From NCBI GenBank assembly GCA_037305845.1, contig CP147778.1, positions 3,072,001-3,136,000 on the forward strand: a stretch of DNA of 64,000 nucleotides, read 5' to 3'. Both the position numbers and the translations under genes were made by a program. Below the pieces are notes generated by a model. The model searched no databases, was not told the DNA's origin, and saw nothing but the letters and a program-made list of their open reading frames with translations. Positions 32,416 through 52,138 of the stretch are shown one piece after another; the first letter of the stretch is position 1; each line of letters starts with the position of its first letter. Origin of the DNA: Candidatus Freyarchaeum deiterrae (GTDB lineage Archaea > Asgardarchaeota > Jordiarchaeia > Jordiarchaeales > Jordiarchaeaceae).

Positions 32416-34302
32416 GTGAAAGAATTCGCTATAAGGTTCGAACCAGACGGCAAAAAAATCGCAGCTGATAATGGGCTAAACATACTAGATTTAGCTAAAG
32501 AAGGAGGTGTGGGAATCCGCTCTGAATGTGGCGGGAAAGGGAAATGTGGGAAATGCCGAATCAAAGTCGAGAATCAGCGTAACCTAAATGAAGTAACCGA
32601 TACAGAGAGAGAACACCTGACACTAGAAGAAATTAATCAAGGGTATCGGTTAGCCTGCATGGCCTCGATCCGTGGGAATTTGGTGGTGTTTATTCCGAGT
32701 GAGAGTCGATTGAGTGTGAGAAGAATACAGGTACATGGTATGGAACAACCTGTTAAACTAGAACCGAACGTTAAGAAAATTAATCTATTTTTGGAAAAGC
32801 CCACAATTCAAAATCCCATAGCAGATGATCTAAACATTTTTACTAATCCGGAGAAGTTATCTAATCTCCAAGATTTGGAATTTGAATATGAGCTGCTGAG
32901 AATAATTCCGGATGTTGTAAGGAAGGGGGATTGGAATGTTACAATTACCATTCTGGGTGATAGAAAAATTATTGATTTAGAGCCTTTCAATACGACTGCA
33001 CGAATTTTTGGATTCGCAATTGATATAGGCACTTCCAAGCTCGTTGGATATCAGGTAGATTTGAACAGTGGCGAAGTTGTTGGAGTTGGATCCATAGAAA
33101 ATCCCCAGATTGCTTATGGAGAAGACGTGCTTTCTCGAATATCCTATGCCGAAGAGGGATACGAGAACAAGCAGAGATTACAGAATCTGACAGCAGAGGG
33201 AATTAACAAAATAATTCAGATGGCTTGCGAAGAATCGGGAGTAGATCCAAAAGAAATTTACGAGTTGACCGTCGTGGGCAACACCGCCATGTTCAGCCTA
33301 TTTCTAGGCATCCAAACCAAGTATCTACACTTGGCACCCTATGTTCCGGGAGTGAAGTTCCCAGTCACCGTTGGAGCGAAAACACTAAACATAAATGTTA
33401 ACCCTAGAGCAAGTGTTTACGTTCTGCCTAATATTGCGGGCTACGTGGGCGCAGACGCGGTTGGCGACGTATTAGCGACCGGTATTTATGATCTGGATGA
33501 AATATGCTTGCTTGTGGATGTTGGAACCAATGGTGAAGTCTTCGTCGGCAATAAGGAGGACATTGTCAGTTGTTCCTGCGCCGCGGGACCCGCTTTCGAG
33601 GGAGTCCACATTCAGTACGGCATGAAAGCTGTAACCGGGGCAATTGAGAGAGTGCAAATAAAACCCAAAACCTTTGATGTTAAGTGCGAAACAATTGGAG
33701 GTTCAAAGCCAGTCGGTATATGCGGCTCAGGAATAATTGACATTGTAGCAGAAATGTTCAGGTGTGGAATTATTACCGAAAGAGGAAAATTCAACGACCT
33801 AGATACACCAAGAATAATTAGAGCCGAAGGAAGACCAGAATTTGTGGTAGCTTGGAAAGAAGAAACCGCCATTGGGAAAAACATTACAGTCTCTATGAAA
33901 GACGTGGAAGAAATCCAATTAGCAAAAGCCGCAATACACGCGGGCTGCGTTGTCCTAATGAAGAAGAAAGAATTGACCGACAACGAGATAGACAAGGTTT
34001 TCATAGCCGGGGCTTTTGGCAACTACATTAACCCCGAGAGCGCAAAATTCTTGGGACTCATTCCAGACATACCCACCGAAAAAATCACGTTTGCAGGAAA
34101 CACCGCCCTCGCGGGAGCCAAAATGGCCCTCGTTTCAAGGGAGGTTCGAAACATCGCACGAAGGTTGTCCAAGTGGATAAGATACGTGGAGCTAATGGCT
34201 GAGCCGGGCTTCAAAAGCGAATTCGTGAAATCAAACCTGATCCCCTACAAAAATCTGGAAGGGTATCCCTCAATAAAGAAATATTTGGAAGAAAACAGGT
34301 AA
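32416..34302 (+). CDS. Reductive activator of corrinoid proteins (RACo; [2Fe-2S] + ASKHA ATPase)
   Basis: CGGKGKCGKC...RLAC; AIDIGTS, YVGAD, DVGTNGE, AAGPAFEG, GICGSG, QLAKAA, AGAFG. Confidence 0.95.
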   Translation: MKEFAIRFEPDGKKIAADNGLNILDLAKEGGVGIRSECGGKGKCGKCRIKVENQRNLNEVTDTEREHLTLEEINQGYRLACMASIRGNLVVFIPSESRLSVRRIQVHGMEQPVKLEPNVKKINLFLEKPTIQNPIADDLNIFTNPEKLSNLQDLEFEYELLRIIPDVVRKGDWNVTITILGDRKIIDLEPFNTTARIFGFAIDIGTSKLVGYQVDLNSGEVVGVGSIENPQIAYGEDVLSRISYAEEGYENKQRLQNLTAEGINKIIQMACEESGVDPKEIYELTVVGNTAMFSLFLGIQTKYLHLAPYVPGVKFPVTVGAKTLNINVNPRASVYVLPNIAGYVGADAVGDVLATGIYDLDEICLLVDVGTNGEVFVGNKEDIVSCSCAAGPAFEGVHIQYGMKAVTGAIERVQIKPKTFDVKCETIGGSKPVGICGSGIIDIVAEMFRCGIITERGKFNDLDTPRIIRAEGRPEFVVAWKEETAIGKNITVSMKDVEEIQLAKAAIHAGCVVLMKKKELTDNEIDKVFIAGAFGNYINPESAKFLGLIPDIPTEKITFAGNTALAGAKMALVSREVRNIARRLSKWIRYVELMAEPGFKSEFVKSNLIPYKNLEGYPSIKKYLEENR

Positions 34303-34338
34303 AGAAGAAAAATTCCATTTTTTGTTTAATTCTTTCTC

Positions 34339-36048
34339 TTAAAGTTTTAAATCATAGACCTTTTTCAGAGCCTCTAACTGCTCTTTCCCGGTTTCTTTTT
34401 CGGGTTTGGGTTCACCTTCTTCTTTCTTGTGGCTCTTGGCTGGTAGTATTTCGTCTATTCGTAGCACGATTCTTGCAACATCTGTAGCTGAATTTAACGC
34501 ATGAACCTTTACCCTGAGCGTATCATAGATTCCTATTTTTTGCATATCATCGATCTGACCATCGATTGCGTTTACCCCCGCCCAGATCATTCCCTCACTG
34601 TGTTTTGCCTTTAGTTCGGTTAGAATTTGTAATGGGTCTAGTCCCGCGTTATCCGCTAGGGTTTGCGGTACTATCATGATTGCCTCTGCGTAAGCTAAAA
34701 TCGCCAACTGTTCTTTTCCCTCGAATGTCTGTGCGTATTGCCCTAAACACCTAGAGAGTTCTATTTCTGACGCTCCGCCGCCGGGTATAATTCGAGGGTC
34801 TTCTATGATGTTCCTAATGGTGTAGAGCGCGTCGTAAAGGCTTCTTTCCGCTTCTTCCAGAGCGTATTCGTTTCCTCCTCTTATAATGACGCTTGAAGCT
34901 CCCTGAGCTGGGCATCCTCTAACCATAATATAATTTTCTTTTTCGGAGGGTTTCCATTCTTCAATCACTTCTGCTTTTCCCAATTTGTCACTTGTTAAAT
35001 CTTCATTAAAAATGTCGGACACTACTGATGCCTCAGTCAACTTGGCAATCCTGTTAGTATCGGGTAGAAGAACACGCTTAACGGCCAGTATCTCCGCTCG
35101 TGCGAGATAATGTTCAACTATCTCATCTATTCCCTTATTCACAAGAGCAACATTTGCTCCAGACGAGATTAGTTTATTCACTATTTCTTTAACTATCTCT
35201 ACTCTCTTTTCTATGAAGGCTTCGTGCTCTTGAGGTGCTCTGACCTGTATCTTCATATTTTTTCCAGCAGCTTCCCACCAGCTCCCCGAAATTTCCTTCA
35301 ACTCCATACTTCTTATCAGGGCGACCTTGGCGTTTTCAACTCGCCTAGGCATATCAGGATGCACGATTTCTCTATCCTCAATAACATAACCGTCCACAAC
35401 GTAGGAGTCGCTGAGAGTACCCCCTCTCCTTTTAATCACTTTGATGTCTTCAATGTTCGTTCTCGGTTTTCCAGTAACTTCACTTACAACTCGTTCGGCT
35501 AATTCGAGAGCAATTTCGCTGAACTCATTCACAGTTTCAGGTGCACTTGTGATCTTCGTGTTTATGGCGGTCGAAGCCGACTTCCTTAAGATGTCCTTAT
35601 CACTGGGTTTTACAGGAACAGCGATTTCCTCTAATCTTTTAATTGCTCTTTTTAACGCTAAATCGTATCCTTTTAGAATGGTTGAAGGGTGAAGCCCTTG
35701 GTCCATTAGGGTTTCCGCCTTTCTGAGAAGCTCACCAGCTAAAATTACCGCGGTGGCTACTCCGTCGCCCACTATGGCATCCTGCGCCTTCGCCATCCCA
35801 ATCAAAATTCTAGCTACGGGGTGCTCTGCCTTAAGATTCTTAAGTATGGTGAATGAATCACCGGTTATCAGCACTTCTCCATCCTTTTTGAGGATTGCCT
35901 TATTCACACTATATGGTCCAATGGTTTTTCTTACAATCTGGCAAATGATACCGGCTACCATAATGTTACTCTTAAGAGACGCTAAATCTAACCCGTGTTC
36001 CAGTTTGTACACTGGCTTAAACCTTAGAGAGGTATCTTTTCCCAGCAA
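34339..36048 (-). CDS. Divergent group II chaperonin (thermosome-like) subunit
   Basis: EHPVA, VGDGVAT, KGIDE, IIRGG, ERSLYDA, PGGGASE, LADNAG, LRIDE. Confidence 0.92.
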   Translation of the reverse strand: MLGKDTSLRFKPVYKLEHGLDLASLKSNIMVAGIICQIVRKTIGPYSVNKAILKKDGEVLITGDSFTILKNLKAEHPVARILIGMAKAQDAIVGDGVATAVILAGELLRKAETLMDQGLHPSTILKGYDLALKRAIKRLEEIAVPVKPSDKDILRKSASTAINTKITSAPETVNEFSEIALELAERVVSEVTGKPRTNIEDIKVIKRRGGTLSDSYVVDGYVIEDREIVHPDMPRRVENAKVALIRSMELKEISGSWWEAAGKNMKIQVRAPQEHEAFIEKRVEIVKEIVNKLISSGANVALVNKGIDEIVEHYLARAEILAVKRVLLPDTNRIAKLTEASVVSDIFNEDLTSDKLGKAEVIEEWKPSEKENYIMVRGCPAQGASSVIIRGGNEYALEEAERSLYDALYTIRNIIEDPRIIPGGGASEIELSRCLGQYAQTFEGKEQLAILAYAEAIMIVPQTLADNAGLDPLQILTELKAKHSEGMIWAGVNAIDGQIDDMQKIGIYDTLRVKVHALNSATDVARIVLRIDEILPAKSHKKEEGEPKPEKETGKEQLEALKKVYDLKL

Positions 36049-36166
36049 AGGCTCTCACTTTCCTAATTTCTAACTAAATATAAGATATAGAGGACACTAA
36101 ACTTATGCTATTCTCTCGCCTGCTTCAGTGCCCACTGATTGATTGTAGACCTTGTTAAATGTTAGT

Positions 36167-36505
36167 TCATGTCCAACTCACAACTTTCTGGTATTTTTCC
36201 ATTGTGAGGTCGACCCATCCTCCGTAATCTACCAGCTGCACGCCCTTTATCATTCTTTCCTCAGGAATTCCTCTAGCTTCAGCGTCCGGTTTCAAGACGT
36301 ATACATTAACGCCTACGTCGAGTGCGTTTTTCAAAAGTTCCGCTACTAGTCCCTTCTCTTCCCTGATTGCACTAAGTACTGCATCCTGGATCAACATCAA
36401 ACCCACTTCTTCGTCCATTTTCCTCAAATTTAAGGACGCTTCAAACGCGTACGTGTCATCCTTTGTGAAATAAGGCGACTTGGATACTAGTATCAATGTT
36501 GCCAT
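36167..36505 (-). CDS. dsrH: DsrH/TusB family sulfur-relay protein
   Basis: SKSPY, LIQDAV, YVLKPDAEARG, VDY..WVDL......VSW. Confidence 0.85.
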   Translation of the reverse strand: MATLILVSKSPYFTKDDTYAFEASLNLRKMDEEVGLMLIQDAVLSAIREEKGLVAELLKNALDVGVNVYVLKPDAEARGIPEERMIKGVQLVDYGGWVDLTMEKYQKVVSWT

Positions 36506-36521
36506 CTTTAATCATCTCCTT

Positions 36522-36881
36522 CTAGAAAGCCATTGCTATATCATTTTCAGCAATGATTTTAGCTACATCCCCCTGAACTATGCTTTCAATGGAAAGACCT
36601 GGGATTAAATCGTTCATGGTGAGACCTCTCTCATAAAGCGATTCTTCAACCACATAGAGTTTGGACTCAAAATTCTGTAACATTTTAAGAAACCGGTCAA
36701 TGGCTGAGTATCCAATAGCTTTTGGAAACTGATTCTTCATCGGACAGTAAACACCATCATCAATGAAAAGAAGAGTTACCGGAATTGTGAGAGCCCCAGC
36801 CGCGGCCGCTAATCGCACAGCTTCCACAACATGTATCCAGCCGAACGGAGGCTTCCTAATTATAAGCAGCAACTTCATCAC
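36522..36881 (-). CDS. dsrF: DsrF/TusC family sulfur-relay protein
   Basis: RKPPFG, EAVR, LFIDDGVY, YVVEESLYERG. Confidence 0.82.
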   Translation of the reverse strand: MMKLLLIIRKPPFGWIHVVEAVRLAAAAGALTIPVTLLFIDDGVYCPMKNQFPKAIGYSAIDRFLKMLQNFESKLYVVEESLYERGLTMNDLIPGLSIESIVQGDVAKIIAENDIAMAF

Positions 36882-36898
36882 ATCATCTCCCTATCTAC

Positions 36899-37255
36899 CT
36901 ATATTGTAATAGCGAAAAATCGGTCCGCGTCCCTTATGATTTCTAGAACTGTGGTTGTGCTCTCCATGGTAGCGCCAGGGATGAAGTCTGTCTCGGGTTT
37001 TAAGCCACGAGCGGTGCAACAAGGGAAGCAGTTAACGAACTTCACTCCCTTCTCGCTCAGTTCCTTAAACCTGCCCACGGGGGAAGGCATATCCTCCACG
37101 ATCAAAAATTTTGCAGCATTATAAACGCCGTCTCCCATACCAATAACTGTTACCTCATGTCTCTTCTCAAGAGCCGCGTTTATGAACTCAATCGCGGTGT
37201 CCGAATTCTCAAACTGTAGAGGAGTAGTAAACAGTAAAATCGCTACTTTACCCAT
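36899..37255 (-). CDS. dsrE: DsrE/TusD family sulfur-relay protein
   Basis: TTP, GDGVYNA, NCFPCCTARG (persulfide Cys position retained); start at MGKVA. Confidence 0.82.
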   Translation of the reverse strand: MGKVAILLFTTPLQFENSDTAIEFINAALEKRHEVTVIGMGDGVYNAAKFLIVEDMPSPVGRFKELSEKGVKFVNCFPCCTARGLKPETDFIPGATMESTTTVLEIIRDADRFFAITI

Positions 37256-37304
37256 AAAATCACTACGCAAACTTCTTAGACTAACATGGTCTGCTTATCT
37301 ATAC

Positions 37305-38246
37305 CTAGAATATTTTGTTTAAAGGATGTGAGGGCTCCTGCCTTACCCGATATTTTCTTCTGTTATAATATCCTACAAGACCGTTGACCATAGCACAGGC
37401 AGGGAAAACCGATTCCGCCTCCTCAATGGGACCGTATAAGGCGAAGTCAGCACCCATCATTGCCGTTACCAGCACTGAGCCGGATATGCACGACTTGTAC
37501 GAAACGGGTGGAAACTCTTTCTTAATCTTTTTCCAAGCGGTAATGGCGTTCGCGGGGCCGCATCCTGAAGGAAGCCCGAACTCATTTTTCACAGAGTATA
37601 TGGTCTGCGCTGCGAAGGATATACTAACCACATCGAGCACCGCGGTGTCCACGAGCATGTTTTGGATTCCCGCTTCCTGCGCCTTTTGGATTAATCCCTT
37701 CTCACCACCAGTACCCTTTAACAATTCTATTCTGCCTTCCGGCATCAAAGCCTTGGGACTGAACACGAGTAGCATGCTGGATTTTACACCGAGTTCTCGA
37801 AGAGTGTTAAGTTCACTCTCTTTGGAGTGCACATCTATCGAATTGTAGATAGCCCGCTCAGCTAATCCCGCTTCAACAGCGTACTTAATAGCCGCCAATC
37901 GAGCCTCTGGGAGAGTGCTGTCCACGAGAAAGGGAGCCTTTGTTAATTGAGCCACAAAATCAATTTGTTTTTCGAGAGCCTCAGCAGTATCTCCCACAAT
38001 ATCCAATATGCCGGGGTTCCCAGTTTTATCGGACATCTCATCCTGCTTGTTGATTAGCTCCTCCGCCTTTTTCTTATCGAATATTCCCTTTTGACGGTCA
38101 GAAACAATCTTGTGTTTATCATAAAAAATGCTTCCAATCAGTACTGTGGGATAAGCACCCGGTTGGCCACCGATTTTTACACCATTAATGTCCCAAACCT
38201 TTTGTTCCTTTTCAAAAGCAAACACATCGCATACCTCACTTTTCAA
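37305..38246 (-). CDS. mtrH: MtrH-like methylcorrinoid:tetrahydro(methano)pterin methyltransferase (MT2; MtoA/MtgA type)
   Basis: FEKEQKV..I.GVKIGGQPG.YPTVLIGSIFYDKH, IYNSI, FGLPSGCG, YGPIE; no other mtr genes nearby. Confidence 0.9.
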   Translation of the reverse strand: MKSEVCDVFAFEKEQKVWDINGVKIGGQPGAYPTVLIGSIFYDKHKIVSDRQKGIFDKKKAEELINKQDEMSDKTGNPGILDIVGDTAEALEKQIDFVAQLTKAPFLVDSTLPEARLAAIKYAVEAGLAERAIYNSIDVHSKESELNTLRELGVKSSMLLVFSPKALMPEGRIELLKGTGGEKGLIQKAQEAGIQNMLVDTAVLDVVSISFAAQTIYSVKNEFGLPSGCGPANAITAWKKIKKEFPPVSYKSCISGSVLVTAMMGADFALYGPIEEAESVFPACAMVNGLVGYYNRRKYRVRQEPSHPLNKIF

Positions 38247-38520
38247 AATTCACAGTCGTGCACCAGTTTATCAGAGTAAGTTAATTGTTCTTCCATCCGA
38301 CCTCTAATCTCGTTTGTTAATCCACGTTTTTTGTGTTTGTGTGATTCTAAATCGTATAGAGTAGTATACCATGAACTTGTTGTTATTTTAGCTTATTAAT
38401 TTTTATTACGCTACTGCGAAAATCTCAACTACTGAATATGAGAACAGTGCAAAACTTCTAGGCAATCCATAAAATATAATGAAAGGGTCGACAAAAAATT
38501 AATCTGTATGGAAACTTAGT

Positions 38521-41500
38521 ATGCCTCAACTGAAAATCTACAAATTTTTCACAAGCAGTAAGAAGAATTTTTATTTAAAGGGACTCGAATTGTCTGGAGA
38601 CAACTATTCCTATAATTCTTCAGGGGACTTGTCTTCTCTTCGGGAGACTATCGCCGCAGTCAAAACCTTAGCGGATTTCATAAAGAGTTCCTTTGGTCCC
38701 ACTGGCATGAATAAACTTATTGTTGATGAAAAAGGAGACGTTACGATAACAAGGGACGGTTTTACTATTTTAGATAAAGTGGGAGGAGGTCATCCTGCGG
38801 TCAGGGTCCTTAAGGACGCCGCCGAGACACAAGACTTGGAGGTTGGGGATGGAACAAAGACAACGGTGATACTAGCCAGCGAGCTTTTGAGCAGGGCTGA
38901 ACAACTGCTCGATAAAGGAATTCATCCCACGACCCTAATACGAGGATACTCAAGAGCCTTTAAAGAAGTATTGAAAATTCTTGAAGAGATTGCCATTCCT
39001 ACTGATTCAACCAACAGGGAGATACTGAAAAAAGTAGCAGTCAATGCTATGACGGGTAAGCTTAACTTAGAGGAGTGCGAATTTCTTTCGCAAATGGTTG
39101 TGGATGCCGTCTTACACGTCTCAAAAAATATTGGTGAAAAGCGTTTCGTTGATGTTCAAAAAATCGTAATTGAAAAGAAACTGGGGGGCGTAGTTGCAGA
39201 CAGCGAGTTGGTTAAGGGCGTGTTATTAAGCAAAGAAGCCTCCCATAATGAAATGCCGAAAAGTGTTGAAAACGCAAGAATAGCTCTCCTTAAATGTCCT
39301 CTGGAAATTGAAAAAACCGAATTCGATACCAAAATTCTAATAGAGAATCCAGAGAGAATAAAAGATTTTTTGGAAGAAGAAGAATCAGTAATAAAACAAA
39401 TGGTTGGAAAACTATCAGAACTGGGTGTGAACGTTGTCTTCTCCGAAAAAGGAATCGACGACCTAGCCCAATATCTTTTGGCTAGTAGGGGAATTCTCGG
39501 TGCTGAGTGGGTGGGAAATGCTAACATCAAAAACGTGGCTTCAGCAACAGGCGGCAAACTCGTAGCGGATATTAACGACCTTAAATCCGACGATCTGGGA
39601 TACGCGGGTTTTGTCCGAGAAAAAGAATTCGGAGAAGAAAGAATAATACTCGTTGAACAGTGTGAAAACCCATTCACCGTGACCATTCTTCTGAGGGGAG
39701 GAGCCCAAAGCATTCTGGACGAGTTGGAAAGAGCAGTTCATGACGCAGTTTGTGCAGCAAAAGACGTGGTCGAGAACCCCCTGATACTAGTGGGAGGGGG
39801 AGCCTCAGAAACCGAAATCTCAAAAAGGATCAGAGCCGCTGCCCAAGGAAATGGAAAAGAGCAATTGGCGTACACGGCCTTCGCAGAAGCTCTGGAAGCG
39901 TTAACCTTTTTGCTCGCCAAAAATTTGGGTCTTGACGCGTTGAACAAGGTTGCTGAGCTGACAAGGAGACATAGTTCGGGAGAAATCTACGCCGGAATAG
40001 ATGCGATTGATGGGGAAATCAAAGATCTAATGAATCTTGGAATCTACGAACCTTTCCTCGTAAAAACCCAAGCCATGAAATCCGCTTACGAGGCAGCAAC
40101 AATGATTCTCAGAATAGACGATATATTTACAGCCGAAGAACTTGAAAAAGAATCGGAAACACTGGACTATATGCGTCCTCTAAAGGGGGTCAAAACGCGG
40201 GAAAAAGTTTTCGAAACCACCCTCAACAATATATCAGCTTTTAGTGTCATCGCCGACGCAGTAAAACCCTGCTTTGGTCCCCGAGGAAGAAGCAAACTGC
40301 TCATAGACAATATAGGAGGCCTAAAATATACCGGTGACGGGGCAACTATTCTGGGATTCATGTACATTAAGCACCCCGCAGCAAAAATGTTAGTCGACCT
40401 CACAGAAGCCCAGAGCAAATACATCGGTGATGGGACAAAAGCCAGCGTCATCCTAGCAGGCGAGTTGCTGAAGAATGCTGAGGAACTATTAAGCCAGAAA
40501 GTACACCCCACTGTGATTATAAACGGTTACAAAAAAGCTACACAAAAGGCTCTGGAACTTTTGAAGAATATGGCACTACCAATAAATCACGAGGATTCTG
40601 GAACTCTAAAAAAAGTCGCCCTAACAACTATAAGCGGGAAAATCACTGATGGAAAAGAGCTATTCGCTGAAATGGCTGTTAAAGCTATAAACAGTGTAGT
40701 AGAAGCAAAGAAAGTTCCCAATATTGATATTAGAAAAATCAAGATTTTGAAGGAACAGGGGAAAAGTCTTGGTGAAAGTGAACTCTTCGCGGGAGTTATT
40801 CTGGAAAGAGAGGTCATCAGTCCCAAGATGCCCAAAAGAGTTGATCAAGCCAGAATCGCATTACTTGATTGTTGGTTGAGGGTCTCCCAACAGAATTTTA
40901 GAAGAGATCTGGAGATTCGTATCCAAAGCTCCGATGAGTATAAAGTTCATTTAGACACTCTAAAAGAATTAGCAAGGGACATGGTAAAGAAAATAGAGAG
41001 TACGGGAGCCAATGTTGTCTTGTGTACAAAAGCGGTAGATGACTTAACAGCACATTTTCTCGCAGAATCTGGGATTTTAACTGTTGCTCAGCTGACAAGT
41101 ATAGATCTCAAAATAATATCTGAGGCAGCCGGTGGGAAAATCGTAACCGACCTAAATGATTTGAGAAGAGAGTATCTTGGAATGGCGGAAACTGTAGAGG
41201 AAAGAAAAATCGGTGGGAAGGAGCTTGTTTTCGTTAACTGTTCTGGATTAAGATGCGCCAGTGTTGTTATCAGGGGGGGCGCCGAGGACATATTGGGCGA
41301 AGCGGAGAGAGTATTCCGTAACGTGTTAAAAGTTTTAAAAGTTGTAATTATGGAAGGTAAAGTGGTCGCGGGGGGCGGCTCAGTGGAAGTAGAACTCGCC
41401 AAAGAGGTAAAAAGACACGCAAAGAACTTTTCTAAAAGAGAGCAACTAGCCGTGGAGAAATACGCAAAGGCCCTTGAATCTATACCCAAAACCTTGGCTG

Positions 41501-41766
41501 AAAACTCTGGATTGAATGCATTAAAAACTTTGGCCGAGCTCAAGGCTCTGCACGAAAACCCCCAAAATGTGTGGATAGGGATCAGCGAAAAGGGAAAACT
41601 AGAGAACATGAGGACTCTAAACGTTTTAGAACCTTTAAGTCTCAAAACACATCTAATCAAGTCTGCAAATGAGATAGCAGAAACCATTCTGAGGATAGAC
41701 GAGGTAATATTAGAAAAAGAAAAAGTGACGGCAGATAAATCTGAAAAGGCGTTAAACGGAAATTGA
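38521..41766 (+). CDS. Tandem-fused double group II chaperonin (two complete thermosome-like subunits)
   Basis: Two full motif sets: FGPTG/DGFTIL/GDGTKT/ERAVHDA/GGGASE/ILRIDD, then FGPRG/DGATIL/GDGTKA/ERVFRNV/GGGSVE/ILRIDE; start may be TTG 38590. Confidence 0.92.
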   Translation: MPQLKIYKFFTSSKKNFYLKGLELSGDNYSYNSSGDLSSLRETIAAVKTLADFIKSSFGPTGMNKLIVDEKGDVTITRDGFTILDKVGGGHPAVRVLKDAAETQDLEVGDGTKTTVILASELLSRAEQLLDKGIHPTTLIRGYSRAFKEVLKILEEIAIPTDSTNREILKKVAVNAMTGKLNLEECEFLSQMVVDAVLHVSKNIGEKRFVDVQKIVIEKKLGGVVADSELVKGVLLSKEASHNEMPKSVENARIALLKCPLEIEKTEFDTKILIENPERIKDFLEEEESVIKQMVGKLSELGVNVVFSEKGIDDLAQYLLASRGILGAEWVGNANIKNVASATGGKLVADINDLKSDDLGYAGFVREKEFGEERIILVEQCENPFTVTILLRGGAQSILDELERAVHDAVCAAKDVVENPLILVGGGASETEISKRIRAAAQGNGKEQLAYTAFAEALEALTFLLAKNLGLDALNKVAELTRRHSSGEIYAGIDAIDGEIKDLMNLGIYEPFLVKTQAMKSAYEAATMILRIDDIFTAEELEKESETLDYMRPLKGVKTREKVFETTLNNISAFSVIADAVKPCFGPRGRSKLLIDNIGGLKYTGDGATILGFMYIKHPAAKMLVDLTEAQSKYIGDGTKASVILAGELLKNAEELLSQKVHPTVIINGYKKATQKALELLKNMALPINHEDSGTLKKVALTTISGKITDGKELFAEMAVKAINSVVEAKKVPNIDIRKIKILKEQGKSLGESELFAGVILEREVISPKMPKRVDQARIALLDCWLRVSQQNFRRDLEIRIQSSDEYKVHLDTLKELARDMVKKIESTGANVVLCTKAVDDLTAHFLAESGILTVAQLTSIDLKIISEAAGGKIVTDLNDLRREYLGMAETVEERKIGGKELVFVNCSGLRCASVVIRGGAEDILGEAERVFRNVLKVLKVVIMEGKVVAGGGSVEVELAKEVKRHAKNFSKREQLAVEKYAKALESIPKTLAENSGLNALKTLAELKALHENPQNVWIGISEKGKLENMRTLNVLEPLSLKTHLIKSANEIAETILRIDEVILEKEKVTADKSEKALNGN

Positions 41767-41786
41767 GATTTTCCCAATTCCTCTAC

Positions 41787-41800
41787 AAAAACTTATATAA
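41787..41800 (+). promoter_or_regulatory. Candidate archaeal BRE/TATA promoter for the corrinoid protein operon
   Basis: AAAAACTTATATAA about 65 nt upstream of ATG 41865. Confidence 0.35.
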
Positions 41801-41864
41801 CAGTTTACTAAGATATAATGAAATAAGTATTTCTTTTTAAAAAATTTTTTGAGCGAGTGATAAC

Positions 41865-42512
41865 ATGTCGGAAAGCGAAATTTTAGAAAAGTTATCTCAA
41901 GCATTAACAAACGGTGACGACTTACTCGCTGCAGACCTTGCAAAGCAAGCACTTAAAAAAGGAATTTCCGCCATCGATATACTGAACAAGGGATGCACAC
42001 CGGGAATGCTCAAAGCCGGAGAAATGTACGCGTCCGGGCTCGGAGGGGCCTCACTCACCGACCTTCTAATGAGCGGCGAATCCATGCAGGCGGTACTCGC
42101 AGTGATCAGGCCCTACCTGAAAGCAGAAAAAGCTGAAGCAGCTGGCAGACTAGTTATCGGAATGATAGAGGGAGACCTGCACACCATAGGAAAATCCGTT
42201 GTTGTTTCAATGTTTGAATCTGCTGGCTGGGCAGTCACAGATTTAGGCGAAGATGTACCCGCAGAAAAATTCATCGAAGCCGCCAAAAGAGAAAAGGCAA
42301 ACATAATTGGCGCAGCATCCGCAATTTCCGGCTGTCTAGACAAGCTAAAAACATTGAAGGAAATGATTGATAAGGAGAATCTTTCCGTCAAATACCTGGT
42401 AGGCGGATGGGCAACAGGCCCCGAATTCGCCAAATCTATTGGTGCCTACTTTGCGAGAGACGCTTTAGCAGCAGTACAATTAGCCTCAGAACTAATAGAA
42501 GAGGCTGAATAA
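41865..42512 (+). CDS. Corrinoid (cobalamin-binding) methyl-carrier protein
   Basis: N-terminal cap helices plus EGDLHTIGK (DxHxxG), DLGEDVP, GAS, VGG. Confidence 0.93.
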   Translation: MSESEILEKLSQALTNGDDLLAADLAKQALKKGISAIDILNKGCTPGMLKAGEMYASGLGGASLTDLLMSGESMQAVLAVIRPYLKAEKAEAAGRLVIGMIEGDLHTIGKSVVVSMFESAGWAVTDLGEDVPAEKFIEAAKREKANIIGAASAISGCLDKLKTLKEMIDKENLSVKYLVGGWATGPEFAKSIGAYFARDALAAVQLASELIEEAE

Positions 42513-42533
42513 AAAGAGTAGAGGTATAGAAAA

Positions 42534-43910
42534 ATGCCCGAAGGTGAAGAATACTTATCTTGGTATAAGAAGCCCGAGCCATACACCACCGTCTCTGATA
42601 AGCCGACCGAAGCCGGTGGAAAGAAGGCGGCTCCTTGGTGCGACTACACCTACAGCGAATGGGAAATATACGAGAAACAGAAGATACCCGACTGGTATTG
42701 GAACTTCAAACCCCCAGAATGGTCTGAGGAAGAGCAGGTCATAATGGAGCGAATAATGCTCAAGCTACAGGAAAATATCGCCAAAGAAAAAATGACCCCA
42801 TTGGACAGATATTGGGCTACTGCCTATGGTGTAGAAAGAGACCGTTGCCCTGTGATGGGAGGCAACTACGCACTTGCAACCAACTCCCCGAGACTATTAG
42901 ACTCCTATGGTGTAATTTTGAAGGGAGTGGACTTTCACAGGTATCCTAAACTACACATACTGGGAACCACTATGGCTGTGGCGAGGTTCGCTACAGACAT
43001 CATATTCACCCACAAAATCACTTACTCTGAAGCCGAGTGGGGTGGACATGTTTACTTGAAGGAAACCTCTGCTCCTGTGTGTAGAAGCTCCGGAGCAATG
43101 GAAACAGGCTTCAAGGTTCCATTTCTACCGTACCGAACTGCGCCTTTCCTCTCACACAAAATACCAGAAGCAGACTACGGAGCTTACGCCCACCAGTTAT
43201 GGGAAATCAGAACCATCAAGGAGTATCTCAGAAAAGCAGGACTCTGGGGAGTACTGCCCCTCATGACAAACACCTGCGTAGGTCCCATAGGTACAGCTGG
43301 AGCAGCCATCGGTCCCACTCTGGGTATTCGAGAGAGAGCCATAATGTATAAGCGAAATCCTGAATGGTACCACATGTGTATGAGAGAGGCTCTCAGATTC
43401 TGCATAAGACACCACAGAGCAGTAAGGGACGCTGGCACGGACATAATGTTCTTCTGTGACGGTCTTAACACCATGGGAACGGATATGACCGCAGACCTAA
43501 TACCATACCACGTGGATTTGTGCAAGGAAGTCCACTGGCCCCCAGGAGGAACATGTATAACCGGTGGAGACTTCCGTCGCCATGTGGACATCATACTTCA
43601 GGCACACGGAAAATACGCATACTTGGTGGGCAGCGACCACGTGTGGCCGATACAGGATGCCCTTAAAACAGCTCTCCAATATGACAAGATGTGGTTCGAC
43701 TTCCCGGACTGGGATAAGATTAAGGCGGCTAAACTTGAGGATATCGCTGCCTATGAGAAAGAGAGATTCAAGATTGCCTGTGAGGATCCGAAGAGCAAGT
43801 ACTGGAACCCCGGACCGGCTGACTACTGGATACCCATGGAAAATTATCAAGCTTGGGCGGATGCATCTAAAAAGTACGGCTCCTACCCTAATGGCTGGGA
43901 ACAACCGTAA
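42534..43910 (+). CDS. Highly divergent URO-D/MtaA-fold methyltransferase (putative substrate:corrinoid MT1)
   Basis: MTPLDRY.AT.YG.E.DRCPV opening, GPI..A, Y.RNPE.YH..M, AGTDI, IPMEN..AW..A..KYG ending; directly after corrinoid gene. Confidence 0.7.
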   Translation: MPEGEEYLSWYKKPEPYTTVSDKPTEAGGKKAAPWCDYTYSEWEIYEKQKIPDWYWNFKPPEWSEEEQVIMERIMLKLQENIAKEKMTPLDRYWATAYGVERDRCPVMGGNYALATNSPRLLDSYGVILKGVDFHRYPKLHILGTTMAVARFATDIIFTHKITYSEAEWGGHVYLKETSAPVCRSSGAMETGFKVPFLPYRTAPFLSHKIPEADYGAYAHQLWEIRTIKEYLRKAGLWGVLPLMTNTCVGPIGTAGAAIGPTLGIRERAIMYKRNPEWYHMCMREALRFCIRHHRAVRDAGTDIMFFCDGLNTMGTDMTADLIPYHVDLCKEVHWPPGGTCITGGDFRRHVDIILQAHGKYAYLVGSDHVWPIQDALKTALQYDKMWFDFPDWDKIKAAKLEDIAAYEKERFKIACEDPKSKYWNPGPADYWIPMENYQAWADASKKYGSYPNGWEQP

Positions 43911-43943
43911 AAATTAGTATGACTACTATAAGCGAGGTGAAAT

Positions 43944-44339
43944 ATGGTGGCTACTGCAGAAATGACTGATGCGTGTTTTCAACACAGTGCTAAAAGAATC
44001 AAAGCCATGGCCGAGGAAGGATATGGTGAAGGATGGGAACCCTTCAAAATGTGTTTCTGGATGAGAGACCTGAACAGGGGATACCTGTTTACATTTAAAA
44101 AGGACGGCGTACTTGAAAACACGGAAATAGTGACCAAGGAACCAACAGGCATAAATGCTGTGGTCATAATGTCCAGCGATGATTGGGTCGGCCAGCACAC
44201 GAAAGAAGTGGATTTATCTGAGAAATACTTTTCTGGAGAAATGCAAGTCAAGGGCGATGTCGCTGTTCTACAACAGTACAAAACCTTTGAGTCCTTCGAA
44301 CCATATTACCCGCCTGGTCACCCCAAATACAAAAAATAA
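43944..44339 (+). CDS. SCP2-like lipid-binding domain protein
   Basis: YFSGEMQVKGD; GAGGTGA RBS. Confidence 0.75.
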   Translation: MVATAEMTDACFQHSAKRIKAMAEEGYGEGWEPFKMCFWMRDLNRGYLFTFKKDGVLENTEIVTKEPTGINAVVIMSSDDWVGQHTKEVDLSEKYFSGEMQVKGDVAVLQQYKTFESFEPYYPPGHPKYKK

Positions 44340-44493
44340 TCAAGCAAACATCTACCAGAGAATTCCACCAAACTCCTTTCAACATTTTTTTCTTCTAAAA
44401 ATAAGATAAATAGTGATAATGAAAATTATGCGAAAGCCAAATTTATTTTATGGATTAGAATCTTTAAAAATTTAAATAGAGGTGTGATTCTGC

Positions 44494-44673
44494 ATGGCTA
44501 AAGTAGCAAAATGTGCAAAATGTAAATCTGATAAAATCCAGAAAAAAGAAGTTTCGGTTCCCTCAATACTTGAGGTGGGAAGAAATTTTCCGGCTGATGC
44601 ATATGTCTGTTTAAATTGTGGATATGCGGAATTTTATTTTAGGGAACTCGATTACACAACCCGAACACACTAA
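44494..44673 (+). CDS. Small Zn-ribbon protein, 59 aa (not in ORF track)
   Basis: MAKVAKCAKCKS...AYVCLNCGYAEFY; GAGGTG RBS upstream. Confidence 0.8.
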   Translation: MAKVAKCAKCKSDKIQKKEVSVPSILEVGRNFPADAYVCLNCGYAEFYFRELDYTTRTH

Positions 44674-44742
44674 AAGAGTAGAGACAGCGGAAAATAATAC
44701 ATAAAAGGTTTACAAAATAAAATAAACAGTTCAGGGATTAGA

Positions 44743-45267
44743 ATGGCCAAAGTCGCAAAAATAGGAGAAATGTTCTTTCCACTAGAACTTTACTATTCAC
44801 ACAATAAGAGAGGTCATACCTGGATAAAAAAAATGGATGATGGAAATCTACAGATAGGCTTGGACTACTACGGCGCTATACCCATGATGATTACAACAAT
44901 ATCTCATCCCCTGCCTTACGTTATTGAACTTCCTCCAGCAGGAACTCAACTCAAACAGGATCAGCCCTACGGTCTTCTAGAAACCGTAAAGTATATTGGA
45001 CCATTCTATGCACCACTAACCGGAACCATTGTTAAAATTAATCCGGATAGAGTATCCTCACCACCCCATAATATTAGAAATTCATACGTAGACGGTTGGT
45101 TCCTTATTCTCAAACCCGCAAATTACGAAAAGGAAATAAAAAATCTTCTAACCGGCGAAGAGGCAGTAAAGTGGATTATTAAAGATATAATCGAGTACTC
45201 GGAAGCGGAAGACGAAGAACTCACAAAACAAGCAAAGCAAGGCTACACCATTGAGGAAATGAAGTAA
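44743..45267 (+). CDS. Glycine cleavage H-like lipoyl-carrier protein
   Basis: HTWI...QIGLD.Y, ELPPAG, LETVK (lipoyl-Lys position), APLTGTIVKIN, YVDGW. Confidence 0.85.
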   Translation: MAKVAKIGEMFFPLELYYSHNKRGHTWIKKMDDGNLQIGLDYYGAIPMMITTISHPLPYVIELPPAGTQLKQDQPYGLLETVKYIGPFYAPLTGTIVKINPDRVSSPPHNIRNSYVDGWFLILKPANYEKEIKNLLTGEEAVKWIIKDIIEYSEAEDEELTKQAKQGYTIEEMK

Positions 45268-45312: not shown

Positions 45313-45783
45313 TTAATCAGCTGACTCCCTTTTTATTACAAGTATCGTAATATTTTCTGATTTACTCTCAATGGTTCTTTTAAACTCTTCTGGATTTTTT
45401 ATAACCTCGTCACTATCGTAGACTAGAAAAAGGACATTTCTATACATGCTACTGAAAGCTGGAATGTGTGAAATTATTGCCGGCACTGCTACCTGTAAAT
45501 CCTCCTCATTTCTGACCAGTTTTACCTCCATAGCCAGCAATCCACCCAAAAGAATGAAATCCACGTTATGGGCACCCATATAACCCTGTATAATCTGGTC
45601 ACGCAGAAGAGTAGGATCAAAGGATAAGCAAATGTCCCTGACACTATCCTTCAAATCCTCCTCATCCCCGAAGTCTTTCATCCCTTTACTCAACTCTACT
45701 TTCAACATATAAACTATTTTTTGAACCTGATCCTCACCCTTCGACTTCTCAGAAAAATATTTAGAAAAATCTTTGAAAGACAT
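45313..45783 (-). CDS. PD-(D/E)xK nuclease-like domain protein
   Basis: E.DL..., VDF.......MEVK, LFLVYD pattern. Confidence 0.55.
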   Translation of the reverse strand: MSFKDFSKYFSEKSKGEDQVQKIVYMLKVELSKGMKDFGDEEDLKDSVRDICLSFDPTLLRDQIIQGYMGAHNVDFILLGGLLAMEVKLVRNEEDLQVAVPAIISHIPAFSSMYRNVLFLVYDSDEVIKNPEEFKRTIESKSENITILVIKRESAD

Positions 45784-45839
45784 TCTGCAACCCACTAAAT
45801 CTTACCTTAATTTCGTTATATAAAGTTAGTCGATACGGA

Positions 45840-47462
45840 TTATAAATTGACTTGGGGTGCAGCCCTTTTCTCCGCACACCACTCTTCTTGCGTCTTGCCA
45901 AATTTATCCTCTATCTGCTGTCTATAAATGTTGTTGTAGGTACAAAATGGAATTATTCTGCCATCGGGAGTAGGATAGTTAATGTCGCAATACTGGATTC
46001 GCTCCAAGTCAAGATTGTAAGGATCCATAAAATGCATCAAACCCAACATAATCACGTTGTGCATGAAGTTTCTCAGAGAGCTGTAACTACCCCTTTTTAG
46101 AAACATTGATGTGAGATCCTTAATCAACCCCTTCTTCTTGATGTGCCTAAGGGAACCCGCTAGTTTAAGTTTAGCACGTACACTTGCAAACTGCTTTCCT
46201 TCAGCGTAGAGATTACATATGTCCCCCAGAACATTCAAGATTTTATCTATATCAATAACCTCAGTAATCGGATAATAGGAACCATCATTTCTGAGAAACA
46301 AGAAGCTCGCCATACCGCACGCAAAATGCGCGCTCAGCTCAAGCTCCGGACTTCCCTTGATAAGCCCCAACGCCCTTCCTAGCAGAACCATTGAAGGAAT
46401 AGTATACCAATCGGCTACCTTGATCTTCCCGGCGGTCTGCTCTTCAATGAGATGTATTACTTCTGGTATAGTGATACGCATCTTTCGGAGTTCTTCGTGG
46501 TCGATTCGGCCAGTAATGCTTACGGGCTGAAAGTTGACGCATCGAACAATGTCTCGGTTCTCCAATGCAAACTGAATAATCTGTCCCACTTGGTTGTCGT
46601 TGACACCCTTCATAATTGTTGGTACTAATATGACACCATCCAGACCCGCTTCCTCACAGTTATTCAATACCTTCTGCTTAATAGGCCTCAGATCCACGTT
46701 TCTCGCAGCTAAGTATGGTTCAGCTGTTACGCCGTCAAACTGAAGATATATAGTGTTTAGACCAGCTTCCACAAGCTCACGTACATAATCGATGCTCTTG
46801 GCCATTCTGATTCCGTTGGTAGCAATCATAATATGATTGAAGCCGAGTCCTTTAGCCCACTTAACATATTGCGGCAGATTCTCGCTTAGTGTAGGCTCAC
46901 CACCAGCGAACTGAATTCCCGGACAAGGTACAGGCAAGTTATGCCGGAGATTCTTCATCATCTTAAGCACTTCTTCTGGAGTCGGCTCATAAACGGTTCC
47001 AGAATCACCAGCATTGGCGAAGCAGATTGGACAACTCAAATTACATCTATTGGTTACATCGATTATAGCCAGAGCGGTGTGCGACCTGTGATTAGGACAC
47101 TGACCGCAGTCCTTCGGACAGCCCTCAATAGACTCGGTTCTTGGGTTGTCAATACCTATCGACTTATACCAGTATGGCATAACACGTTTGAACATCTCTG
47201 CATCCGACCAATACACATCCACAAACTCACCATGTTTGTCGCAGGCCTTCTTCATCATAACCTTGCCATCTTCTTCATAGACCGTAGCATCTATAACCGT
47301 CACTACTTCATCTTCGAGTTTACACAAGGGGCAAATTGACTTGGTCTGATAGGGCAGTACCCGAACAGGATGCTTCTCAACGCGATATCGGGAGAGATCC
47401 TTATCCTTGTGTGTGGGTAAAACTTCAGGCACAGGTTTAATCCCCGTTGTTCCCATAAACAA
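45840..47462 (-). CDS. tes: Tetraether lipid synthase (radical SAM, Tes/GDGT-MAS family)
   Basis: TKSICPLC...KKACDKHG, GCPKDCGQC, CNLSCPIC, QFAGGEPT, YLQFDG, NFQPVS, H.ACG, MHFMD.YN, RIIPFCTYN. Confidence 0.85.
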   Translation of the reverse strand: MFMGTTGIKPVPEVLPTHKDKDLSRYRVEKHPVRVLPYQTKSICPLCKLEDEVVTVIDATVYEEDGKVMMKKACDKHGEFVDVYWSDAEMFKRVMPYWYKSIGIDNPRTESIEGCPKDCGQCPNHRSHTALAIIDVTNRCNLSCPICFANAGDSGTVYEPTPEEVLKMMKNLRHNLPVPCPGIQFAGGEPTLSENLPQYVKWAKGLGFNHIMIATNGIRMAKSIDYVRELVEAGLNTIYLQFDGVTAEPYLAARNVDLRPIKQKVLNNCEEAGLDGVILVPTIMKGVNDNQVGQIIQFALENRDIVRCVNFQPVSITGRIDHEELRKMRITIPEVIHLIEEQTAGKIKVADWYTIPSMVLLGRALGLIKGSPELELSAHFACGMASFLFLRNDGSYYPITEVIDIDKILNVLGDICNLYAEGKQFASVRAKLKLAGSLRHIKKKGLIKDLTSMFLKRGSYSSLRNFMHNVIMLGLMHFMDPYNLDLERIQYCDINYPTPDGRIIPFCTYNNIYRQQIEDKFGKTQEEWCAEKRAAPQVNL

Positions 47463-51920: not shown

Positions 51921-52138
51921 TCGAGAATCACCCTTCAATTTTATGCGTGCACTAATCCACTTTTGGTGGACAATTCAAATATATAAATCATTTCAATGGT
52001 TTTAAATCAAGCCCAATTTTTAATTTTAATCTTTTTGGTGAGAAATATCTAGAAATGCACAAAGACTTGAAATAGTGTACTTTTTTCCTATTAGAACCCT
52101 TTAAAGATACTTCAAATAATAGTCTATTGGTCATAGGA

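Follow-up and report, generated by a model that had tools for sequence, protein, structure and literature searches.

The 64,000-nucleotide window analysed here, part of the closed genome of the Asgard archaeon Candidatus Freyarchaeum deiterrae (contig CP147778.1, positions 3,072,001 to 3,136,000), contains a cluster of twelve genes in which the components of a corrinoid methyltransferase system are joined by a lipoyl-carrier protein, an SCP2-like protein, a zinc ribbon, three chaperonin modules and the sulfur-relay subunits DsrE, DsrF and DsrH (DsrEFH). Judged from sequence and conservation, the cluster is real and conserved and represents a hitherto undescribed form of the familiar four-component corrinoid methyltransferase system, and we consider it probable, on balance, that its genes form one functional module, an accessory-rich version of that system. 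What appears to be new is the integral place of the lipoyl carrier, the three-way orthology of the chaperonins with the history of their fusion, and a DsrEFH set specific to one genus.

Genes were called from the open reading frame (ORF) listing and from Pfam and NCBIfam scans of the window's proteins, and each of the twelve genes named in an earlier sequence-only reading of this DNA was recovered at its coordinates (Table 1). They are arranged as a RACo gene followed by two divergent units with intergenic gaps of 16–154 bp: a leftward unit of mtrH, dsrE, dsrF, dsrH and, last, ths1, which is convergent with the RACo gene, and a rightward unit of six genes for the double thermosome Ths2x, the corrinoid protein, the first methyltransferase (MT1), the SCP2-like protein, the zinc ribbon and the GcvH-like carrier. 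The limits given for the spacer between the units hold if Ths2x starts at the ATG at 38521; its orthologs are 1054–1076 amino acids (aa) long, so the start possibly lies downstream. Conservation of the spacer's DNA extends only to the closest species.

The core of the cluster matches the four-component systems described so far. The RACo-type activator shows the domain order 2Fe-2S ferredoxin, linker, middle domain and ASKHA ATPase (Pfam RACo_C_ter 2.4e-96 and Raco_middle 1.7e-55, with RACo_linker and Fer2), scores 531 bits against NCBIfam AcsV, under the cut-off of 800, and occupies the same position in the clusters of two further public assemblies, L028 and L029. The corrinoid protein consists of a cap domain and a Rossmann B12-binding domain, with the DxHxxG motif present as GDLHTIG. 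MtrH scores 340 bits against the NCBIfam MtrH-family model (cut-off 287) and 326 bits against MtgA (under the cut-off of 550), and by its sequence it is a second methyltransferase (MT2) of the MtrH/MeTr fold, predicted to pass the methyl group from Co(III) to a pterin. The modelled fold and the gene position of MT1 fit the component that would methylate Co(I). In domain content, therefore, the four proteins reproduce the architecture that the sequence-only reading had recognised, and the cluster shares with the bacterial O-demethylases (Odm, Vdm, Mtv), the archaeal MtoABCD of Methermicoccus shengliensis and Archaeoglobus fulgidus, and CdmBCA a clustered RACo-type activator, a cap-plus-Rossmann corrinoid protein with DxHxxG, an MT1 of the URO-D fold and an MT2 of the MtrH/MeTr type. 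CdmBCA, the chloromethane system, is itself a four-component system whose MT1, CdmB, has the URO-D fold and takes a non-thiol donor (PMC13222342). A methanogen or anaerobic methanotroph (ANME) context was rejected because the closed genome lacks McrA.

Two things set the cluster apart from these systems as published: its MT1 is a separate and very rare branch, and it adds the lipoyl carrier, SCP2, the zinc ribbon, three chaperonin modules and DsrEFH. Full-text searches of the literature returned nothing that links thermosomes, chaperonins or lipoate-binding proteins to corrinoid methyltransferase clusters, and in two genome papers on Jordarchaeia/Freyarchaeia the only such components mentioned are MtrH, MttB and corrinoid proteins. 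The proposal that these additional modules lie outside any known system of this kind is thus upheld, in that we found no paper describing the cluster.

MT1 scores under the gathering cut-off of Pfam URO-D (E 1.4e-3, 18.1 bits against 23.9) and matches no NCBIfam model. A word-based search of 5.8 billion proteins returned six relatives, and an exhaustive HMMER search of 1.84 billion representative proteins gave 37 matches at E<=1e-3, two of them at E<=1e-30; among 36 aligned family members, 30 match URO-D (E<=0.01). The family profile, compared with PDB entries, finds MtaA (4ay7) at 3.5e-11, URO-D at 5.5e-6 and CdmB (9rui) at 3e-4. Structural statements about MT1 are based on an alignment-based AlphaFold model (pLDDT 83.4, pTM 0.85), a single-sequence model with a pLDDT of 35 having been discarded; Foldseek aligns the retained model to URO-D/MtaA structures with TM scores of 0.81–0.83, and to cobalamin-independent methionine synthases weakly. 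The best solved relative of MT1 is thus MtaA, of the MtaA/MtbA/MtsA group (TM 0.82–0.83), which likewise works with a partner corrinoid protein. The HxC...C zinc site of MtaA, however, is not conserved in the MT1 family: its HxC motif (LHICGN) aligns with a non-conserved segment that reads CITGGD in the window, and C248 and C308, each placed by the model just past a neighbouring barrel strand, are nearly invariant instead. Relative to MtaA, members of the family carry N-terminal additions of roughly 60–110 aa, which in the close subfamily (at least 54% identity) take the form of a Trp/Tyr-rich extension of about 60 aa, and the host genome has no methyl-coenzyme M reductase (MCR). Because MT1 scores under the URO-D cut-off, matches no NCBIfam model, lacks the HxC motif and conserves other cysteines, and so departs from the MtaA family in both family features tested (the gathering cut-off and the zinc site), we place it in the URO-D/MtaA superfamily as a branch that is new and rare and lies outside the MtaA family proper. 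A profile search of 400 Asgard genomes found, beyond Jordarchaeum and one closed genome of another Asgard family (G031), only generic URO-D paralogs scoring at most 122 bits, and the Bathyarchaeial lignin MT1 'MtgB' (PMC10989822), considered as a possible member, was excluded as unrelated and only about 300 aa long. The MT1 gene has a GC content of 0.49 and a GC3 of 0.54, above its surroundings, and the genes for the zinc ribbon and the GcvH-like protein are GC-poor.

The host genome measures 3.58 Mb with a GC content of 0.41. Contigs of the same genus carry the name Candidatus Jordarchaeum or Jordarchaeia, an Asgard lineage also called Freyarchaeia; GTDB places Freyarchaeia under Jordarchaeia. 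At the DNA level the cluster is 70–82% identical to that of five congeners (G001–G005). The order RACo, Ths1, dsrHFE, mtrH, Ths2x, corrinoid protein is colinear on single contigs of three other Jordarchaeum species (70–78% DNA identity) and is split across adjoining contigs in a fourth, and L028 and L029 hold the same cluster between flanks unlike those of the window. Misassembly, which the sequence-only reading had counted among the ways in which it could fail, is excluded because the order is colinear across the congeners and these two assemblies. The DNA sequencing runs that contain the locus are wetland and freshwater-sediment metagenomes. In other Jordarchaeum a protein of 138–141 aa that has no Pfam match is encoded between dsrH and ths1 (L028:6213-6638, L029:9530-9946); it is absent from the window's cluster, has a 52–53% identical homolog beside mtrH in a more distant lineage (L018:3240-3662), and its sole homolog in the host genome, at 305 kb, is 27% identical. 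Some Jordarchaeum also carry two paralogous cassettes of corrinoid protein, MT1 and SCP2 (L021 = G005:C206; L003/L020, L005, L006, L010), which in G005 stand in tandem as MT1, SCP2, zinc ribbon and GcvH followed by corrinoid protein and MT1; the host genome has a single MT1.

That the additional genes are more than neighbours is suggested by the surroundings of MT1 homologs in ten lineages (Table 2), labelled L for loci, P for contigs and G for genomes; many of the flanks are short, several of them 3–8 kb, and the lineages share ancestry. The corrinoid protein adjoins MT1 in eight of the ten, the L016/L027 contigs being among those where it does not. An SCP2-like gene stands beside MT1 in six (Jordarchaeum, L011, L022 with a weak match, L023, L016/L027 and G031), a GcvH-like gene in four (Jordarchaeum, P0005, P0007 and G031), and a thermosome paralog likewise in four (Jordarchaeum, L016/L017/L027, P0005 and L023). 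The zinc ribbon, with only a weak match to Pfam Zn_ribbon_13, is 86–88% identical within the genus and still 80% identical in L018, despite an MT1 identity there of 54%. A random 20-kb stretch of the host genome would hold a thermosome gene (six in the genome) in about 3% of cases, and a GcvH-type gene (five) equally often. Linkage to MT1 persists despite changes in gene order, strand and flanks, and because it recurs beside MT1 homologs of as little as 29–32% identity, the SCP2-like protein, the zinc ribbon, the GcvH-like protein and the thermosome paralogs are predicted to belong to the MT1 system. The earlier claim that the additional genes are a non-random set therefore stands for these four and falls short for DsrEFH, which was found beside MT1 only in Jordarchaeum.

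Table 1. Genes of the corrinoid methyltransferase cluster, with positions in the window.
Feature	Position	Strand	Basis
RACo-type activator	32416..34302	+	628 aa; all four RACo Pfam domains
Ths1, divergent thermosome paralog	34339..36048	-	569 aa; Cpn60_TCP1 2.1e-145
DsrH/TusB-like subunit	36167..36505	-	112 aa; Pfam DsrH 5.7e-17
DsrF/TusC-like subunit	36522..36881	-	119 aa; Pfam DsrE family 2.6e-15
DsrE/TusD-like subunit	36899..37270	-	123 aa; Pfam DsrE 9.9e-16
MtrH-family methyl-corrinoid:pterin methyltransferase (MT2)	37305..38246	-	313 aa; Pfam MtrH 1.3e-101
Divergent intergenic region, mtrH / double thermosome gene	38247..38520	.	ORF coordinates; two promoters presumed inside
Ths2x, head-to-tail fusion of two different thermosome paralogs	38521..41766	+	1081 aa; two full Cpn60_TCP1 domains
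Corrinoid (B12-binding) protein	41865..42512	+	215 aa; B12-binding_2 + B12-binding domains
MT1, rare divergent URO-D/MtaA-fold methyltransferase	42534..43910	+	458 aa; profile, model, Foldseek
SCP2-like small protein	43944..44339	+	131 aa; Pfam SCP2 25.3 bits (cut-off 21.3)
Four-Cys zinc ribbon (CxxC...CxxC)	44494..44673	+	59 aa; ORF and sequence
GcvH/LbpA-like lipoyl-carrier protein	44743..45267	+	174 aa; GCV_H 5e-19, 68.8 bits

Table 2. Genes around MT1 homologs in ten lineages, with the identity of each MT1 to that of the window.
Lineage	MT1 identity	Neighbourhood
Jordarchaeum (window)		full cluster
L011	80%	corrinoid protein, MT1, SCP2, then BcrAD and HGD-D genes
L016/L017/L027	67%	two adjacent thermosome genes, MT1, third thermosome gene, two HGD-D genes, SCP2, CoA transferases
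P0005 contig	55%	radical SAM genes, GcvH, lipoate ligase, thermosome, second GcvH-like gene, corrinoid protein, MT1
L018	54%	corrinoid protein, MT1, zinc ribbon (80% identical), MtrH, 140-aa gene
P0007 contig	32%	corrinoid protein, MT1, GcvH-like
P0008 contig	30%	MT1, corrinoid protein
L022	28%	MT1, corrinoid protein, weak SCP2-like, RACo, MtrH
L023	30%	RACo, corrinoid protein, MT1, three SnoaL-like genes, MtrH, SCP2, thermosome
G031, closed genome of another Asgard family	29%	one operon MT1, corrinoid protein, x, GcvH-like, MtrH, SCP2

The chaperonins provide the most detailed record of shared history. The host genome encodes seven chaperonin domains in six thermosome genes, including two canonical housekeeping copies, and three divergent modules, namely Ths1 and the two halves of Ths2x, lie in the cluster; each is covered by the Cpn60_TCP1 profile over positions 1–490 and so has the full-length equatorial, intermediate and apical architecture. 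Ths2x is also fused in L029 (1054 aa) and L028 (1076 aa) and gives a continuous match in G003, G004 and G001, and the counterparts of its halves in L016/L027 are separate adjacent genes of 536 and 541 aa, 6 nt apart. In the tree each half of Ths2x pairs with one of these two adjacent L016 genes (support 99/97 and 99/99), and Ths1 groups with the L016 thermosome downstream of MT1 (L016_592) and with L023_514 (support 100/99), a Ths1-clade thermosome that lies 5.6 kb from its MT1, which makes three one-to-one ortholog pairs between the window and L016. Since the orthologs are one-to-one and unfused in L016, the three-subunit set predates the split of the lineages, and the fusion is specific to Jordarchaeum. 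The Ths1 clade is narrow, as the identities of its homologs fall in steps from 100–66% to 51–49% and then to at most 43% for generic thermosomes.

The aspartates of the GMDK and HDA motifs, which are known to be catalytic from studies of GroEL (D52, D398) and of group II chaperonins, are only partly retained in the cluster. The first is replaced by Asn in Ths1 and in the N-terminal half of Ths2x and by Ser in the C-terminal half, where alone the second is replaced as well, by Asn; GDGTTT reads GDGVAT in Ths1 and GDGTKT and GDGTKA in the other two modules, and TNDGATIL is altered too. Both aspartates are present in the housekeeping copies and in the L016 orthologs; an unchanged GDGTTT is found in the housekeeping copies and in L016_592, the remaining two L016 orthologs having GDGTTA and GDGTKT. 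Because all three modules of the cluster have lost the first catalytic Asp and have altered motifs, it is unlikely that they are ordinary thermosomes driven by ATP. The 'dedicated folding machine' of the sequence-only reading is accordingly kept in part, the recurrence of thermosome paralogs beside MT1 speaking for dedication and the altered ATPase sites against folding in the usual manner. With thermosomes and the eukaryotic chaperonin CCT, in which some ATP sites are weakened too, the modules share the full-length Cpn60_TCP1 architecture and the division into several distinct paralogous subunits; unlike them, they lie inside a metabolic gene cluster, two are fused into one chain of 1081 aa and all three lack the first Asp, and their orthologs in the sister lineage L016 are unfused and canonical. 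Elsewhere in the host genome, at 873.4–879.7 kb (L012:7429-13747), a second corrinoid module comprises a thermosome of 578 aa with catalytic Asp intact and GDGTKT, a corrinoid protein, an MT1 of the MttB superfamily and RACo. An orphan thermosome paralog of 536 aa on a very long branch (1976.2–1977.6 kb), in which both catalytic aspartates are replaced (Ser, Asn) and the motif reads GDGGKI, was found near no corrinoid gene.

The GcvH-like protein has a loop insertion and an acidic C-terminal tail and scores under the NCBIfam gcvH cut-offs. Its ETVK motif, in which E80 and K83 are invariant in the family alignment, aligns with the ESVK that holds the lipoyl lysine of solved H proteins, and its close family is narrow, at eight proteins. 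The host genome has five GcvH-like genes, and because it encodes LplA next to another GcvH paralog, lipoylation of the carrier is possible. Neither glycine-cleavage (GcvT/P) nor sHdr partners were found among the window genes scanned against Pfam and NCBIfam. In a complex prediction, MT1 and the GcvH-like protein reached a median score of 0.05 against a mark of 0.32, a result that speaks neither for nor against contact between them.

The genes for DsrE, DsrF and DsrH, that is, the E/D, F/C and H/B subunits, are encoded together with gaps of 16–17 bp, in an operon with mtrH. DsrH reaches 68 bits with NCBIfam TusB, above the cut-off, has no cysteine and is conserved in L028 and L029; DsrF reaches 59.9 bits with TusC, under the cut-off. 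The Cys-rich site of DsrE reads NCFPCCTARG, and its Cys before RG, the position of the persulfide-carrying active-site Cys of such subunits, aligns with that of the TusA-linked copy (ACRVCSELRG) and is kept in three species. That second copy belongs to a housekeeping TusA-DsrE-DsrF-DsrH set at genome position 26 kb, to which the cluster subunits are about 31–34% identical (DsrE 31%); TusA sits there and is not in the cluster. Taken with the distribution of the two modules, this suggests that the lipoyl carrier is an old part of the system and DsrEFH a recent, genus-level addition.

A close precedent for the combination of the two is the sHdr-LbpA system, reportedly one of sulfur oxidation with a DsrE3/TusA relay, which like the cluster pairs a GcvH-like lipoate-binding protein outside glycine cleavage with DsrE-family sulfur carriers; the lipoate ligase and radical SAM genes next to the module on the P0005 contig may be counted as a further likeness. 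The cluster differs in that it has no sHdr genes, its TusA lies elsewhere, and the partners are components of a corrinoid methyltransferase. In another Asgard genome (L044, G145:C5:1366000-1384000) a GcvH-like gene comes straight after dsrE, dsrF and dsrH, and TusA lies 6 kb off; this could be a sulfur-relay plus lipoyl-carrier operon that has no methyltransferase genes, and its order echoes the pairing of DsrE with LbpA that is said to occur in sHdr systems.

We suggest the following working model. RACo would hold the cobalt of the corrinoid protein as Co(I), and MT1 and MtrH would be the two methyltransferases that act on this protein, so that the methyl group of an external donor would pass through MT1 to Co(I) and through MtrH to tetrahydromethanopterin (H4MPT) or tetrahydrofolate (H4F) and on into the Wood-Ljungdahl pathway. 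The chaperonin set would be a client-specific machine for assembling or holding MT1, which we propose as the client because in L016/L027 it is MT1, not the corrinoid protein, that is flanked by chaperonin genes. The lipoyl arm of the H-like protein would serve as a working thiol/disulfide co-substrate of MT1. As to the chemistry, we tentatively favour, as one possibility among several, a methyl-thio donor with lipoyl and persulfide handling; the sequence-only reading had raised methyl-thio compounds as an example. The donor might be methanethiol, a methyl disulfide or a hydrophobic methyl thioether, which the lipoyl disulfide would capture as CH3-S-S-lipoyl; MT1 would then move the methyl group to Co(I), leaving the lipoyl persulfide, a good leaving group, to be resolved or, in Jordarchaeum, passed to DsrEFH. 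This is consistent with a thiol methyltransferase, MtaA, as the closest solved relative of MT1 and with the two family-conserved cysteines after neighbouring barrel strands. A bolder version, which we consider unlikely, would make this a new class of system, in which the lipoylated carrier is an obligatory co-substrate of MT1, either the methyl donor or the sulfur product being bound to its dithiol arm, in methyl-disulfide or persulfide form, and in which a dedicated hetero-oligomeric chaperonin is built from three largely ATPase-dead subunits, two of them fused.

Several observations weigh against this model of a methyl-thio-fed module. The catabolic direction of methyl flow is an assumption, and activation of a thiol in the manner of MtaA is not shown, because the HxC zinc motif is absent. 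The available flanks of six of the ten lineages, several of them merely 3–8 kb long, contain no GcvH-like gene, and in L016/L027 the genes on either side of MT1 encode chaperonins and the contigs show no corrinoid protein. Conversely, a GcvH-like homolog of 58% identity (L030) stands beside a CCG/Fe-S protein, with no MT1 in the 10 kb upstream or the 2 kb to the contig end. Orthologs of the cluster's DsrEFH were found at 84–87% identity in four of five congeners and otherwise at no more than 42% among 400 Asgard genomes; at 16 other Asgard DsrEFH loci no gene for MtrH, a corrinoid protein, MT1 or a thermosome is adjacent, and TusA is beside 11 of them. The chance figure of about 3% per locus is not a clean statistic, given the shared ancestry of the lineages, and no RNA run was listed among the sequencing runs that hold the locus. 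Finally, SCP2, the SnoaL-like genes of L023 and the HGD-D and BcrAD genes of L011, L016 and L027 fit hydrophobic or aromatic methoxy compounds at least equally well.

The last point is the basis of the strongest competing explanation, which we regard as rather doubtful: an O-demethylase of the MtoABCD/Odm type for hydrophobic or aromatic methoxy compounds, in which SCP2 would deliver the greasy substrate, and the lipoyl carrier and DsrEFH would never touch the methyl group and would serve redox buffering, protection of Co(I) or product processing. Of the accessories, SCP2 is indeed the one conserved most widely, the L023 neighbourhood includes three SnoaL/NTF2-like genes and a Rieske gene, HGD-D and BcrAD genes (of aryl-CoA reductase or 2-hydroxyacyl-CoA dehydratase type) adjoin the module in L011, L016 and L027, acyl-CoA and PaaK-like genes surround it in the window, and MT1 lacks the thiol-binding HxC motif of MtaA; the family profile also finds CdmB, an MT1 whose methyl donor is not a thiol, at 3e-4 (PMC13222342). 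The same profile is, however, far closer to MtaA (3.5e-11), the β-oxidation flank of the window is not conserved within the genus, and an O-demethylase leaves unexplained why a lipoyl carrier should be encoded between the corrinoid protein and MtrH in the G031 operon and recur in four lineages.

A reversed flow, anabolic or dissipative, seems improbable. Methyl-H4MPT or methyl-H4F would here feed MtrH, the corrinoid protein and MT1 in turn, and MT1 would methylate a thiol as MtaA does, candidate acceptors being homocysteine, the dihydrolipoyl arm and a DsrE persulfide, from which methanethiol would arise. MtaA, the nearest solved relative, does run in this direction, the weak Foldseek matches to cobalamin-independent methionine synthases would fit, and the paper on a complete wetland-soil Freyarchaeia genome leaves open the acceptor of MtrH-derived methyl groups (PMC11291895). 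Against this, a housekeeping route to methionine would call for a far commoner MT1 family, the reading gives SCP2 and the private chaperonins no role, soluble transfer of this kind wastes methyl-transfer energy, and we see no downstream enzyme that would act on an S-methyl-lipoyl product. The weakest alternative, a lineage-specific accident in which the accessory genes are neighbours by history only, with cellular roles unrelated to the methyltransferase, could appeal to the restriction of the DsrEFH linkage to one genus, to the many paralogs in the genome (seven chaperonin domains, five GcvH-like genes, about 13 FAD/CCG pairs) and to the GcvH-like homolog located elsewhere in L030, but it is very improbable and for thermosome, GcvH-like and SCP2 genes disfavoured, since each of these recurs beside MT1 homologs of 29–67% identity in differing gene orders and flanks, all three chaperonins pair one-to-one with orthologs that flank MT1 in a second lineage, and chance adjacency is expected at only about 3% per locus.

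Corrinoid methyltransferase systems decide which methylated compounds anaerobes feed into C1 metabolism, and a conserved partnership with a lipoyl carrier and SCP2 would point to a substrate class or a chemistry new for such systems, with a possible bearing on organosulfur methyl groups in the carbon and sulfur cycling of wetlands and sediments. The published complete Freyarchaeia/Jordarchaeia genome left the role of MtrH-type methyltransferases open (PMC11291895), and the cluster supplies concrete candidate partners. Pathway-private chaperonins are unusual in archaea, and this set, with its three-way subunit specialisation, loss of ATPase residues and natural fusion of two subunits, may offer, in the lineage closest to eukaryotes, a tractable model for the rise of CCT-like specialisation; an ATPase-dead hetero-oligomeric chaperonin in an Asgard archaeon would, if true, be a prokaryotic, client-specific parallel to eukaryotic CCT.

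Around the module, the window carries a β-oxidation flank with acyl-CoA and PaaK-like genes that is not conserved within the genus (L028, L029). We considered whether the acyl-CoA ligase, crotonases and acyl-CoA dehydrogenase encoded upstream form a DmdBCD-like route for methylmercaptopropionate (MMPA) and rejected this: the families are generic, and L028 and L029 do not share the flank as a conserved feature. A pair of an FAD-oxidase and a CCG (HdrD-like) protein was likewise set aside as partner of the lipoyl carrier, the link being weak; such a pair is found near the module in L029, in L030 one adjoins the GcvH-like gene, and in the window one is 14 kb distant, but the copies share only 36–43% identity with one another, and the genome holds about 13 pairs. 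An acyl-CoA synthetase of 816 aa (window 22134-24584, minus strand) has an additional C-terminal region of about 290 aa that is homologous to a free-standing protein by RACo in L028 (58%) and to a 150-aa gene that in L030 separates the GcvH-like gene from the CCG gene (70%).

Other genes of the window lie further from these subjects. Directly downstream of the cluster, on the minus strand (45313-47462), are a DpnII/MboI restriction-endonuclease-like gene of 160 aa and a radical SAM protein of 540 aa with an HMPTM N-terminal zinc ribbon, which we take to be a mark of the methanopterin-methylase/tetraether-lipid-synthase group; neither is conserved beside the cluster in relatives. A 1612-aa ORF that enters from the window start (26-4864, plus strand) has no Pfam match at E<=0.001. 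At 49845-51938 (minus strand), a methylmalonyl-CoA mutase-family protein of 697 aa carries an N-terminal ChsH2-type OB-fold domain, an unusual fusion.

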